A DNA stretch of 64,000 nt from a phage (GCA_036439915.1 GCA_036439915.1_3065.1); one strand, 5' to 3'. Positions 10,086 to 14,674 are shown, counted from the first letter of the stretch. Numbers and translations are program-made. Notes: a model not told the origin generated them from the sequence alone.

Positions 10086-10089
10086 CAAT

Positions 10090-10119
10090 GGGGACCGAAA
10101 GGTCCCCATATTTTTATTT
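10090..10119 (+). terminator. intrinsic terminator after gene 54
   Basis: ggggacc-gaaa-ggtcccc hairpin followed by atatttttattt. Confidence 0.7.
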
Positions 10120-10404
10120 ACGGAACGAAATAAAAGCAGCAACTGAAGCAACTAAACTGTCTTCAATATAAACTTCAATTTTTACCGGAGCTTCTGACTC
10201 AAATTTGCCTGTTACTACACCTTGGAAAATGCTTTCAGTCTGTTCTGGCTTTGAAAAATTTTCAGAAGGAAAAATTCCGAACTTTTTATCTGTTCCAAAA
10301 ATTTTGATAAATTCATCGTAAACTGCTTCATTAAAAGCGTTATCAGCAGGAATAACGCCTTCAACTACGAGTTCTTGACCTAAAAAGCGCAAAGAAGATT
10401 TCAT
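10114..10404 (-). CDS. hypothetical protein (alt.-3 / alt.-2 position)
   Basis: 96-aa ORF with GAGGA RBS directly downstream of an early promoter. Confidence 0.6.
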   Translation of the reverse strand: MKSSLRFLGQELVVEGVIPADNAFNEAVYDEFIKIFGTDKKFGIFPSENFSKPEQTESIFQGVVTGKFESEAPVKIEVYIEDSLVASVAAFISFRK

Positions 10405-10424: not shown

Positions 10425-10466
10425 TCAGTAAGATTATTATAACACAACACGAGGGACTTGTAAACT
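10425..10466 (-). promoter_or_regulatory. T4-type early promoter (GTTTAC -35, TATAAT -10)
   Basis: minus strand reads GTTTACAAGTCCCTCGTGTTGTGTTATAAT; near-identical copy at 26220-26260. Confidence 0.6.
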
Positions 10467-12522
10467 ACATTTTGAACTTTTTAGACATTCCGTTGATATT
10501 AACCAAAGAAGCCAAGATTTGAGAAACTTCGTTTTCCTCTTCTTTTGATTCTTCTACAAGGAATTGATTAAATCCAGCCATTGGACGAACTTCACCAGTT
10601 TCCATTAGATGGTCGCCATCATATACCGATTCTTCTAATTGTTCAGAAGGAGGAACGATTGTGCCTTCGATTAGATACTTGTTATAAGCAGTTTCTTTCA
10701 TCATGTACGTACTCACTTTATTAATCTTCAGCAAAATTCCACGCGGTAGAATAACTTCAGCTTCTGATGGAAATCCTGATAAATGTCCTGGAACGATAAC
10801 TTTGATTCGCTCAGCTCCTTTAATTACCATACCCACGCTAGTTTCAGCATCTTCATTGGCATACGCAGAATGACTACCCATATGCATTAAATCTTCAGCG
10901 TCAACAGAACCTTCTCCTTCACCAGAAAATACTGCACTGGAATCATCTAGGGCCATATAGTTTTTACCATACTCACCGAAGATATTTGGTTTAAGCGATG
11001 TGGATACGAAGTTCTTGAAATAGAACATTTTATTTTCAATATTATGACGTAAAGTTTTAAAGGTAACTTCTTGGCCACGGTAAAGCGTAGTTCCTGGAGG
11101 AAGAACTGATCCTTTGGCAAAAGCAGAATCCATCGTCTCGATGTGTTTAATAGCTCGTTCCATATATTCTTCACGGGTAGAATCCGGTTTACCTAAAAGG
11201 AACGAGTTCATTTCAACATATGAATCTGCACAATAATCTTCAATTACATCAGACTCAGCCTGAGTTAATCCTTTTGGGGGTACTTCAGTACTTGCATATT
11301 CATACGCTTGAGAAGCAGACTCATTAATCAATTTATAAACGCCATTCATGACAAATTGAATAATAGCTACCTTTTCATCTGGCGTGGCTTTAGAACCTTT
11401 AACTAAATCATTGACAATTTTCTTAATAACATCAAAGCTATTAGAAATATTAATGTCAGCAAGATCACTTAAAATTTTATCAGTTTTATAATCAAAAAAT
11501 TCTTTATTCTTTAAATATTCTTGAGAACCTTGATATGATATATCGCTCTGTAACTTGATAGATGGATCACGTAAACGCGCATGAGCCAATGCAATATGAT
11601 TTCGGAAGCTTTCTAATTCATAATCACTAGATTTAAAACGGGAAGCACTTCTCATACCACCGATAGCTCCTTTGCTGAAGTTTGAACCAACCTGAATAAC
11701 GCCGGAGTTCATTGGTCCTTCTGCTTTATATACCGGAACTTTAGATTCAAACTCTTGGTATTTCTTAGCAGCGAAGCTATCACCCTGAAGCGAAGCATCG
11801 ACAGTAGAATATTGAGCTTGTGCTGCTAATCGACGACTAATTTTAGTTTTCTGAATAACAGCTTGATCCGTGCGCTTATCATTTTCTAAAGCAATAGAAG
11901 CGGCAACAGCGACAGCTTTAGGAACAGCATTACCTGTTTTAACATCTACATAAACATCACCAACCTTTGATTCAACTTTTGTGAATAACTCAGTTGAAAT
12001 AGGAGGTACACCTGGAATGTCTTCTAAATTGGCATTTTTACGGTAAACCATAATATATGCATATTTCTTATCATAGTCCCAGATTTCTTTTAAAAGAACA
12101 TATCGACCTGCTCCTTTAGTACGTACTAAACGGTCAGCAATAACTTGAATTTGTCGAGCTGCGCCATTTGTTTTACTCTTTAGTACGCGGAATAAGCATG
12201 CGTCAATTTTGTACTGTTTCATTGTCTGAAGAGCAGTATCAAAAACCGCATTAATGGCACCAATTGGATTTCCACCCAAGTTTTTAAGTTTAACTAATGA
12301 TAGTTTCTCATTGACACCTATCATTACGATATGCATCATTTTATCGCCTGGCTTAACGTTTTTGTTTGTATCACCGCCAGAGGTGTATGTACAAAATCTA
12401 AATCCAGGAAGCACGCTTTCTTCACCTGCTTGAATAGCAAAAATTTGAGGTATTTTATGCTTAGGATTTAAGTTAACAACCGGCGCCGAAGCGCCGTCAA
12501 ATAATTCTGTAATAAGTTCCAT
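10465..12522 (-). CDS. Alt-like ADP-ribosyltransferase, second paralog
   Basis: 685-aa ORF; N-terminal ~230 aa closely similar to adjacent Alt; R (LYRG), STS (FVSTSL) and ExE (SEAEV) motifs. Confidence 0.85.
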   Translation of the reverse strand: MELITELFDGASAPVVNLNPKHKIPQIFAIQAGEESVLPGFRFCTYTSGGDTNKNVKPGDKMMHIVMIGVNEKLSLVKLKNLGGNPIGAINAVFDTALQTMKQYKIDACLFRVLKSKTNGAARQIQVIADRLVRTKGAGRYVLLKEIWDYDKKYAYIMVYRKNANLEDIPGVPPISTELFTKVESKVGDVYVDVKTGNAVPKAVAVAASIALENDKRTDQAVIQKTKISRRLAAQAQYSTVDASLQGDSFAAKKYQEFESKVPVYKAEGPMNSGVIQVGSNFSKGAIGGMRSASRFKSSDYELESFRNHIALAHARLRDPSIKLQSDISYQGSQEYLKNKEFFDYKTDKILSDLADINISNSFDVIKKIVNDLVKGSKATPDEKVAIIQFVMNGVYKLINESASQAYEYASTEVPPKGLTQAESDVIEDYCADSYVEMNSFLLGKPDSTREEYMERAIKHIETMDSAFAKGSVLPPGTTLYRGQEVTFKTLRHNIENKMFYFKNFVSTSLKPNIFGEYGKNYMALDDSSAVFSGEGEGSVDAEDLMHMGSHSAYANEDAETSVGMVIKGAERIKVIVPGHLSGFPSEAEVILPRGILLKINKVSTYMMKETAYNKYLIEGTIVPPSEQLEESVYDGDHLMETGEVRPMAGFNQFLVEESKEEENEVSQILASLVNINGMSKKFKM

Positions 12523-12525
12523 GAT

Positions 12526-14622
12526 TTATCCTTGAACGAACTTGTAAGGCATGTTTGTAATATCTATGCAAGACGCAATAATTCCGAGAGATGATTCTGC
12601 TTTCTGTTTAACATTTGATGAAACAAATGATGCAAAGTCAACTCTGTCTTCTATTTCAATATCATCTGTCATTGCAACTACTTCACCAGTTTCCATTAGA
12701 CGGTCACCGTCATAAATTACTGATTCGGTGAGTTCTTCCGTAGTCATAACTTCAGTTTGAATGAGTTTTGTATTATTAGATGTTGTTCCGTCATTATTAG
12801 AAGCATCAGTTATTTTATTAACTTTGACCATCAATCCGCGTGGTAGAATTACTTCAGCTTCTGTTGCTATTCCGAGACTTCCTGGATATACAACATTAAC
12901 TTTATGAGCTCCATCAATTGCCCATCCTATTTGAACTTTAACGTATTCAGGATTTTCTTTATACGCTCTTATTTCGTTTGGATTAATAGTTATTCCTTCT
13001 TCATTTTTATCAACTGTTAATTCATTACGAGCTTCTGGTTCTAAAAGACCGATACCAGCATGTGTAATTCCAAAACGTCCAAAAATGATAGGAGTTAAAG
13101 AAGTAGATACAAAATTTCTGAAATAGAACACTTTATTTTTAACTAGCGCTTCGTATATAGGAGCAGTCATACTTTGAGCACGATAAACTGTAATGCCTTC
13201 TGGTATACGGTCACCATTTTCAAAAGCTGAATCTAAATTATTTATCGCAGATTCAATTTCTTTTTCACTCATTACATCATATCGTTCTGGATTGTAACGA
13301 CCCAAAAGAAGATTATTGATGTCAGTATATCCTGAACCACAATACTCTCTAATGCCGCGCTTTTGTGATGGAGTATATTTAGAACCATCACGGGCAATAG
13401 TAATATCAATCATTGGACCTGCACCAATTCCAGAAAAGCTATAAATCATTCGTTTGAGGAATTTAGTTTTTGCTGCGTTCCAGGAATTTTTAGTTATTTC
13501 TTCCCAGACTTCATCTGACTGCCCTTTACGGGTTTTATTATGTTTATCAAGCCAATTATCTTTATATTCTTCAAAGAATTTATTAATAGCTGCTGCATAC
13601 TTCTCTAAACATTTTATTGAAGTGGTTGGTTCATTTTTAATCGCATTGAGAATTACATCTTTAATTTTTTCAGAAACTTCATTAACCTCACTTTTTGAAA
13701 AGAATTTATAGTCATAGTGAAGTTCATCTGCGGTTCCTTCGGCAATAATTTTTGCTGCCTTAGTTTTAGAAGCTAATGAATTAATTCCAAGCTTCATTTC
13801 TTCTGCTTCGGGAATTAAAGGAGCTGTAGCAGGTTTATTGAAATTAGCTGCGGTAGATTCATATTTCTGGAATAATTCGCTTTCAAATCTAGAAGATTCT
13901 AATGACTGACTTTGCGCAATTGCTCTACGGGAAATTTTAACTTTAACGATTACAGCTTGGTCAGAACGTTTATCATTTTCTTGCGCAATAGATGCAGCAA
14001 TTGCCTCATTTTTAGTTACTTGAGCTCCAGTATCTTTATTGATATAAACATCGCCGACTTTCGATTCAACTTTAGTAAAGAGCTCGGTACTAATTTCCGG
14101 AACTCCTGGAATGTCTTCTAGTGATACATTTTTGCGATGTATAAGAATATATGCATACTTTTTATCATAATCCCAGAGTTCCTTAAGAAGGACGTATCTT
14201 CCACCTGAACGACTACGGATAAGTCTATCAGCAATAACTTGAATTTGTCGAGCTTGACCAGCAGTTTTAGACTTAAGAATACGGAGCATACAGGCATCAA
14301 TTTTATACTGACGCATCGTCTGCATTGCAACAGTAAAAACTGAATTGATGTAATTAATTGGGCTTGGACCGAGACCTTTTAATTTAGCAATTGAACCTTT
14401 AGCAGTTAATGTAAAAGGAACAATATGCATCATTTTATCGCCCATTTTTAAATCGCGATTAGTATCACCTCCAGATGTATAGGTACATAAACGAAAGCCT
14501 GGTTGTTCAATTGCGTCATCAACGTGAACTGAAAAAATTTGTGGTATTTTCTTCTTTGGATTTAAGTTTGTAATCGGAAGAGTAGTATCTTCGTCAAATA
14601 ATTCTGTAATAAGTTCCATCAT
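12526..14622 (-). CDS. alt: Alt ADP-ribosyltransferase (virion-packaged, modifies host RNA polymerase)
   Basis: 698-aa ORF adjacent to ligase as in T4; R (VYRAQ), STS (FVSTSL), ExE (TEAEV) motifs. Confidence 0.9.
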   Translation of the reverse strand: MMELITELFDEDTTLPITNLNPKKKIPQIFSVHVDDAIEQPGFRLCTYTSGGDTNRDLKMGDKMMHIVPFTLTAKGSIAKLKGLGPSPINYINSVFTVAMQTMRQYKIDACMLRILKSKTAGQARQIQVIADRLIRSRSGGRYVLLKELWDYDKKYAYILIHRKNVSLEDIPGVPEISTELFTKVESKVGDVYINKDTGAQVTKNEAIAASIAQENDKRSDQAVIVKVKISRRAIAQSQSLESSRFESELFQKYESTAANFNKPATAPLIPEAEEMKLGINSLASKTKAAKIIAEGTADELHYDYKFFSKSEVNEVSEKIKDVILNAIKNEPTTSIKCLEKYAAAINKFFEEYKDNWLDKHNKTRKGQSDEVWEEITKNSWNAAKTKFLKRMIYSFSGIGAGPMIDITIARDGSKYTPSQKRGIREYCGSGYTDINNLLLGRYNPERYDVMSEKEIESAINNLDSAFENGDRIPEGITVYRAQSMTAPIYEALVKNKVFYFRNFVSTSLTPIIFGRFGITHAGIGLLEPEARNELTVDKNEEGITINPNEIRAYKENPEYVKVQIGWAIDGAHKVNVVYPGSLGIATEAEVILPRGLMVKVNKITDASNNDGTTSNNTKLIQTEVMTTEELTESVIYDGDRLMETGEVVAMTDDIEIEDRVDFASFVSSNVKQKAESSLGIIASCIDITNMPYKFVQG

Positions 14623-14642: not shown

Positions 14643-14650
14643 TATTTATA
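14643..14650 (-). promoter_or_regulatory. candidate late promoter TATAAATA upstream of alt
   Basis: tatttata on + strand about 20 nt upstream of alt start. Confidence 0.5.
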
Positions 14651-14656
14651 AAATTA

Positions 14657-14674
14657 AAGGCCCGAAGGCCTTTA
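14657..14674. terminator. GC hairpin aaaggcccgaaggccttt
   Basis: perfect inverted repeat with cgaa loop between 62-aa ORF and alt. Confidence 0.45.

Follow-up and report, generated by a model that had tools for sequence, protein, structure and literature searches.

The tandem alt genes of a T-even phage: a T4 gpAlt ortholog and a probable old paralog largely deleted in T4

Two full-length genes for Alt-like ADP-ribosyltransferases (ARTs) lie side by side on the minus strand of a 64,000-nucleotide stretch of phage DNA (GCA_036439915.1, GCA_036439915.1_3065.1; hereafter the window, meaning the whole stretch analyzed). What is the second gene, and does it set this phage apart from T4? The upstream gene of the pair is here called AltA and the downstream gene AltB. 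A 5-kb stretch around the pair matches 540 phage records, the best of them at 98% identity, and the window comes from a T-even (Tequatrovirus) genome. The locus is very probably the normal Tequatrovirus alt locus, in which AltA is the ortholog of T4 gpAlt and AltB an old paralog that T4 has almost entirely deleted, with both products following the late-expression, packaging and injection route proposed below.

The alt pair and its remnant in T4

Judged from their sequences, AltA and AltB are full-length Alt-family, arginine-type (R-S-ExE) mono-ADP-ribosyltransferases with intact catalytic residues, and both carry every sequence-level hallmark of the family that was tested. Against a curated cut-off of 23.4 bits, PF03496 (ADPrib_exo_Tox) scores 129.6 bits on AltA and 72.9 bits on AltB, and PHROG 802 ("Alt-like RNA polymerase ADP-ribosyltransferase") aligns with each protein over the full length (E = 8e-272 and 5e-255). 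The Pfam family PF26846 (Tevenvirinae_ADPRT) has precomputed matches to P0001, a cluster representative at 98% identity, and to every full-length relative listed; no NCBIfam family matched either protein. The active site comprises the arginine of Y-R (R480 in AltA, R482 in AltB), an F-V-S-T-S segment (503-507 in AltA, with S505-T506-S507; 505-509 in AltB, with S507-T508-S509) and E587-A-E589 in both. Across an 18-sequence family alignment the arginine, both serines and both glutamates are invariant and the middle threonine differs in two. A sequence-only reading of the window had reported two adjacent minus-strand genes of 698 and 685 amino acids (aa), both with an R-S-ExE signature, and this description is borne out by the open reading frames (ORFs) and the alignment.

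The 698-aa length of AltA counts from an ATG at 14622; from the ATG at 14619, which is the start in the T4, PP01, T2 and T6 annotations, the protein has 697 aa. As in T4, the AltA start at 14617-14622 consists of two in-frame ATGs (ATGATG). Published numbering follows both: E577 and the '7-residue' propeptide (PMC11404850, PMC9026906) fit the first ATG, and 'ITE-6' (PMC5694885) fits the second. The E577A variant of T4 Alt is catalytically inactive (PMC11404850). Because ExE lies at 574/576 in RefSeq numbering, E577 is most plausibly its second glutamate, numbered from the upstream ATG; this glutamate aligns with E589 in AltA and AltB.

Since the Alt family has no solved structure, only distant toxin folds are usable for comparison, and phmmer of AltB against all PDB sequences returned nothing at E<=0.01. 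In an AlphaFold2 model, AltB divides into an alpha/beta N-terminal module (11-230), an all-helical center (250-470), an ART domain (480-625) and a disordered tail from residue 629; a model of residues 1-245 has a predicted local distance difference test (pLDDT) of 82.6 and a predicted template modeling score of 0.81. The ART domain, as modeled, shares the fold and R/STS/ExE active site of C3-like enzymes, Vis and the binary toxins (iota, CDTa, VIP2), and its NAD+ (nicotinamide adenine dinucleotide)-binding core superimposes on solved members of the C3-like/binary-toxin R-S-E fold. Identity to the bacterial ART toxins is only 14-25%, however, and their delivery modules are unrelated. The phage enzymes ModA and ModB are short (~200 aa) and are produced early, once infection has begun, without an N-terminal module or propeptides and not packaged, whereas AltA and AltB, both of ~690 aa, carry the Alt N-terminal module and lie behind a late promoter box. 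T4 ModA and ModB nevertheless fall in the same R-S-E ART clade as the pair (Alt/VIP2 clade, PMC5512222).

AltA occupies the same position as T4 gpAlt (NP_049811), between alt.1 and alt.-3, and has the same late box, catalytic motifs and sites for the prohead protease gp21. The two are 70% identical, with 239 of the first 240 residues the same; they differ in that AltA residues ~247-590 represent a different allele (center ~32% and ART ~66% identical). AltB is 42% identical to T4 Alt and shares its architecture and motifs, differing in the center, the ART surface and the C-terminal propeptide.

In T4, the space of AltB is taken by two small ORFs, alt.-1 and alt.-2 (NP_049810, NP_049809), which the T4 RefSeq record attributes to an old duplication that took in the first part of alt. 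T4, described in the sequence-only reading as having a single alt, has one full-length alt gene and this remnant. DNA alignment derives alt.-1/alt.-2 from AltB and not from AltA; likewise, AltB is the better match, and AltA the weaker, to the fragment families phrog_23015/15247. T4 retains ~348 nt from the start of AltB, in which a 1-bp deletion splits the frame, and then the last ~20 nt, at ~91% DNA identity. The missing segment, whole in the window, lies between two short repeats, CTAAAGAGT and CTAAAAAGT, and the T4 junction shows CTAAARAGT microhomology. T4 thus has the derived form, produced by deletion, and the arrangement with two genes came first.

The AltB-specific 1.3 kb is found in 402 phage records (93.5-98.4% identity among records listed), and tblastn recovers AltB at >=80% aa identity in 403, including RB14, where it is labeled "alt.-2", and RB68; RB27 also carries it. 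The pair of 697 and 685 aa recurs in RB6, T6 and T2. The second Alt-like gene of T2, T6, RB6, RB14 and PP01 is the same gene as AltB, with 685 aa, a 3-nt spacer and no material difference, at 96.8-99.3% aa identity among those listed, and the T6 annotation already calls it an "apparent insertion in alt.-2; also similar to alt". Ninety-one records, ~18% of ~500 sequenced relatives, share the T4-type deletion junction. In phage sutha (PV245934, 5635-7838) a complete AltA runs directly into the final ~128 nt of AltB, where the annotation gives a 38-aa 'Alt-like' ORF; this phage has lost nearly all of AltB by a separate deletion, a third route of AltB loss.

Published accounts mention such duplications. 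T4 alt.-1/alt.-2 were listed together with a full-length duplicate in phage 44RR (Nolan et al. 2006, PMC1524935), a duplication was noted in JS98, Bp7 and Acinetobacter phages (Jin et al. 2014, PMC4177764), and a 2026 paper describes a Tequatrovirus with two Alt-like paralogs that are 43% identical (PMC13600099). Most T-even phages have both genes, and these are annotated; the arrangement is therefore already known.

Extra copies are also seen beyond the genus. Dhakavirus genomes carry, at the same locus, genes named "alta" and "altb" (IME08), two copies (FB) or three (WG01), and extra alt copies or fragments occur in Aeromonas phage 31 and Krischvirus; a Jiaodavirus and NHEP36 (no genus in record) have a single copy. 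The tandem genes of WG01 (L003, 1012-7124) encode proteins of 631, 693 and 707 aa, the first of which has an ART that groups with no Tequatrovirus type. Separately, P0009 and P0018 comprise a divergent AltB (74% identical to the window AltB) and an AltA-like protein, both with a longest contig of 14,051 nt; they may lie on one contig of a more distant lineage keeping both genes.

Modules, effector cassettes and hybrid genes

AltA and AltB are 42% identical overall (BLASTP, E=2e-163), and this figure averages very different regions: 69% over residues 1-238, ~18% in the center and ~34-40% in the ART region. A closely similar N-terminal part (~230 aa) followed by diverged central and C-terminal regions had been read from the sequence alone, and the alignment upholds it. 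Each protein is built of a genus-specific N-terminal module of ~240 aa, opening with a six-residue propeptide (MELITE), a variable helical center, a C3/Vis-like ART domain and a predicted C-terminal propeptide of ~55-65 residues. At the DNA level the N-terminal modules are 67% identical and include two 27-nt identical runs, a length matched in 5 of 2000 codon-position-preserving shuffles. The 26-nt identical stretch quoted earlier, with zero occurrences expected in shuffles, is present exactly twice, once in each gene (Table 1).

Domain-wise trees conflict: the N-terminal module clusters by phage genus, and the center plus ART across genera. The N-module tree places AltA, AltB and T4 Alt in a single group (100% bootstrap), at ~45% identity to other genera. 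In the tree of center plus ART, the window AltA joins Dhakavirus "alta" (ART 93-94% identical), T4 Alt joins the second gene of Dhakavirus FB, and AltB joins Dhakavirus "altb" (ART 54-56%) with 100% bootstrap. Tequatrovirus genomes thus differ at position 1 of the array, that of AltA; ~330 records have the window-type effector there and ~175 the T4 type, and both types co-occur with an intact AltB (HP3, ESCO58, ES26). The tandem Alt paralogs of Dhakavirus (IME08, JS98 group; WG01) sit at the same locus, but their N-modules are ~45% identical between genera, and the two of Dhakavirus itself do not fall together in the tree, unlike those of AltA and AltB.

Synonymous divergence separates old from recent similarity. 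By Nei-Gojobori estimates, which are rough near saturation, the proportion of synonymous differences (pS) between the window and IME08 is saturated at 0.66-0.83 for ligase, gp48, gp54, alt.-3, the N-modules and all of AltB, and only 0.30 (synonymous distance, dS, 0.38) for the AltA ART segment (12724-13359) against IME08 'alta'. Such a low value on a saturated background indicates a comparatively recent transfer of the ART segment between genera. Within this phage, the N-modules of AltA and AltB differ at pS 0.65 (dS ~1.5), so that their similarity is old. Recent gene conversion as the source of this similarity was considered and rejected, the synonymous divergence being near saturation. The grouping of the AltB effector with Dhakavirus 'altb', combined with saturated synonymous divergence, makes the paralogs apparently older than the genus.

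Natural recombinants of the two genes exist. Three metagenome-derived proteins are clean single-breakpoint hybrids of an AltA N-terminus and an AltB C-terminal part, with breakpoints at codons ~109, ~185 and ~222. They are encoded on Logan contigs L016, L017 and L018: between alt.1 and alt.-3, L016 carries no alt gene other than the hybrid, and the hybrids of L017 and L018 directly follow alt.1 on contigs that end shortly past the gene. Two further hybrids of the same orientation belong to Yersinia phage PST (NC_027404, 3377-5437; breakpoint codon ~100) and E. coli phage ECML-134 (NC_025449, 3155-5215; codon ~157). All are genes of 684-686 aa that appear to replace the two-gene array, all five breakpoints fall inside the N-terminal module (codons ~100-222), and each event removes the AltA effector and the AltB N-terminus. 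Their sequences point to five independent hybrid events of the type expected from recombination between tandem homologous modules, which supports the earlier suggestion that the shared DNA is a substrate for unequal crossover.

An assembly artifact was rejected as the source of the hybrids on two counts. PST and ECML-134 are complete genomes of cultured phages, and the crossover intervals, when compared with the window sequences, have only 2-12 identical bases in common. Stretches this short are too small to mislead a k-mer assembler. As far as searches show, modular effector exchange and natural hybrids are not spelled out in the literature found, and the advance is incremental.

Transcription, processing and features of the locus

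A T4-type late promoter box, TATAAATA, precedes AltA, and an identical box occupies the corresponding position ahead of T4 alt. No other exact copy occurs between 10465 and 14640, and none precedes AltB, so the earlier observation of a late-promoter-like box before the upstream gene only is confirmed; over the window the octamer is found 10 times against 8.5 expected, not above chance. The spacer between the genes, read earlier as 4 nt, is in fact 3 nt (TAA-ATC-ATG). With a late box ahead of AltA alone and a gap of 3 nt to AltB, co-transcription is the simplest reading.

T4 Alt is a prohead core component present in ~40 copies, trimmed by gp21 and injected with the DNA (PMC9958956; PMC9026906; PMC2988021), and it targets Arg265 of one RNA polymerase alpha subunit and other host proteins (PMC2988021). 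Mass spectrometry places its cuts at ITE-6 and LTE-619, with loss of 63 C-terminal residues and a 68.2-kDa product (PMC5694885), and the site mapping used here reproduces the published 68.2 kDa. Motifs of both gp21-site types stand at aligned positions in the pair: ITE-6 and LTE-632 (equivalent to T4 LTE-619) in AltA, for a predicted mature mass of 70.2 kDa, and ITE-6 and LEE-631 in AltB, for a predicted 69.1 kDa. The family-invariant motif E-S-x-YDGD-x-x-x-E-x-GE precedes the predicted C-terminal propeptide, which in AltB matches the disordered tail of the model.

The proposed course of events is as follows. Both genes would be transcribed late from the lone TATAAATA promoter, and both proteins built into the prohead core. 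There gp21 would trim them at I-T-E-6 and L-x-E|S to mature forms of ~70.2 and ~69.1 kDa, which would be carried in the head and injected with the DNA. Right after infection, both would use NAD+ to mono-ADP-ribosylate host proteins on arginine. For AltB, we infer late co-transcription, packaging, injection, enzymatic activity and targets from features of its sequence.

Several points weigh against this account. The AltA late promoter is, at the level of sequence, a consensus match only, and a weaker internal promoter may serve AltB. The AltB model is of moderate confidence overall (mean pLDDT 71.6). Neither virion proteomics or biochemistry on a second Alt nor direct evidence for AltB expression, packaging, injection or activity was found in the literature, in which names like 'alt.-2' are not searchable. 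T4 alt is non-essential (PMC9026906). Neither of the two enzymes is indispensable, since T4 and ~91 related records thrive in the absence of AltB and the AltA effector part is missing from some isolates.

The alt locus lies between DNA ligase/alt.1 and alt.-3/gp54, antiparallel to the baseplate genes, as expected for the Alt family. Its flanking genes are identified by Pfam as alt.1 (PF24647) and alt.-3 (PF17602, DUF5498, 10114-10404). The late box comes directly after the hairpin that follows alt.1, a terminator-like element that would isolate the alt transcription unit; of six T4-like genomes, five are reported to share a terminator ahead of alt (PMC1524935). At the other end, a candidate early-type promoter marks the 3' limit of the alt unit, and alt.-3 is therefore probably on another temporal program than the alt genes. 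A second hairpin (10088-10109), with a perfect 9-bp stem and T-runs on both strands, stands between the convergent genes gp54 (+) and alt.-3 (-) and looks like a bidirectional terminator. Rfam and ARAGORN found no tRNA gene and no Rfam family over the whole 64-kb window (1-64000). From the lack of any Rfam family, the window is taken to have no group I intron, the ORFs concerned not having been individually checked. T4 has group I introns in the corresponding part of its map.

Table 1. Coordinates of features at the alt locus, counted from the first letter of the window
Feature	Position	Strand	Evidence
AltA, T4 gpAlt ortholog	12526..14622	-	ORF list; stop codon 12526-12528; phrog_802 end to end
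AltB, second full-length Alt-family ADP-ribosyltransferase, 685 aa	10465..12522	-	ORF list
AltA N-terminal module, aa 1-238, with I-T-E-6 prohead-protease site	13906..14619	-	69% identical to AltB module; genus clustering, 100% bootstrap
AltB N-terminal module, aa 1-238, same MELITELFD start	11809..12522	-	Alignment; AlphaFold2 model of aa 1-245
AltA ART domain, aa 421-632, up to L-T-E-632 protease site	12724..13359	-	Motif positions; 93-94% identical to Dhakavirus 'alta'
AltB ART domain, aa 421-631, up to L-E-E-631 protease-type site	10630..11262	-	R482, S507-T508-S509, E587-A-E589
AltA predicted C-terminal propeptide, aa 633-697	12529..12723	-	Nearly identical to T4 Alt propeptide
AltB predicted C-terminal propeptide, aa 632-685	10468..10629	-	Aligns with T4 Alt 63-residue propeptide; pLDDT <50 from residue 629
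26-nt identical stretch, AltB copy, encodes ARQIQVIAD	12135..12160	.
26-nt identical stretch, AltA copy	14229..14254	.
AltB segment deleted in T4 (~1.7 kb)	10485..12174	-	blastn of T4 against the window, and junctions
T4-type late promoter box upstream of AltA	14643..14650	-	20 nt before first ATG; consensus match
Terminator-like hairpin AAAGGCC-TTCG-GGCCTTT with T-run, after alt.1	14656..14673	-	Read from sequence
Candidate early-type promoter, TTTACA-17-TATAAT after TG, just past AltB stop, before alt.-3	10436..10464	-	11/12 matches

Alternative readings and meaning of the pair

What, then, does a second enzyme add? Because the center and ART of the two proteins are only ~20-40% identical, different and possibly overlapping target sets would be most likely. 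A wider proposal, tentative and possible though short of probable, is that alt is a small polymorphic locus for injected effectors, in which a genus-specific head-targeting module (the N-terminal ~240 aa and the terminal propeptides) is combined with exchangeable cassettes of center plus ART, and in which AltB has targets unlike those of T4 Alt, possibly a defense or stress system. Cassettes would then move between genera, and crossovers in the shared module would add or remove them. The logic would resemble that of polymorphic toxins and polyvalent proteins, in which a conserved delivery module is likewise joined to an exchangeable effector; the likeness is an analogy only, and a single effector class (ART) is seen at alt.

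The most serious rival to distinct targets is redundancy, in which AltB is active and packaged and merely adds dosage against the main AltA target, Arg265 of RNA polymerase alpha. The pair does share family, catalytic type (ExE, arginine-type) and predicted delivery route, and there is a precedent in T4, whose ModA also modifies Arg265 (PMC2988021). This is nonetheless unlikely, given identities of ~18% in the center and ~34-40% in the ART, the separate maintenance of both effector types under strong purifying selection across genera, and the presence of two alleles at position 1 (~330 and ~175 records), a pattern that fits diversification of specificity better than dosage.

Alternatively, AltB could be made late and left out of the head, acting in the producing cell, as would suit the lack of proteomic evidence for AltB in virions in the literature found. 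Its whole N-module and both gp21-type motifs make sense only inside a prohead, however, and the hybrids that join an AltA N-terminus to an AltB effector come from viable isolates (PST, ECML-134), so that this reading is quite improbable.

More doubtful again is the idea of AltB as a decaying or catalytically dead copy, for example a structural core protein only, even though the gene was lost independently in T4 and phage sutha and its PF03496 score is below that of AltA (72.9 vs 129.6 bits). AltB is intact at 685 aa in all seven genomes sampled across the diversity of hits; pairwise dN/dS (the ratio of nonsynonymous to synonymous rates) among these seven is 0.024-0.068, each region lies below 0.12, and AltA behaves alike. 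Such ratios mark AltB as a functional gene under strong purifying selection, and decay or loss of catalysis is very improbable.

Hardly credible at all is the origin that the sequence-only reading had suggested, a recent, lineage-specific duplication of alt setting this phage apart from the T4 type: T4 does have one full-length alt only and the N-modules of AltA and AltB resemble one another (69%) more than they resemble those of any other genus (~45%), but essentially the same pair is present in most T-evens and already described, T4 itself holds a deleted AltB remnant, AltB occurs in T2, T6, RB6, RB14, RB27, RB68 and ~400 other records, the N-modules are near saturation (pS 0.65, dS ~1.5), and the AltB center plus ART groups with Dhakavirus altb at 100% bootstrap.

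As a discovery, the normal two-gene locus carries little weight, since hundreds of genomes have both genes annotated and the remnant is flagged in the T4 record. Its interest lies in what T4 lacks. Nearly all knowledge of phage-injected ADP-ribosylation comes from T4, which belongs to the ~18% minority with the AltB deletion. AltB is strongly conserved and, from its sequence features, apparently active and injected, and it has no substrate in the literature; it is uncharacterized because the model phage is without it. Work on T2 or T6 could bring out host targets overlooked in the T4 literature, because AltB is conserved without an assigned substrate and position 1 holds at least two effector alleles. 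If AltB does have distinct targets, T4-based work would be blind to them, T4 having deleted the gene.

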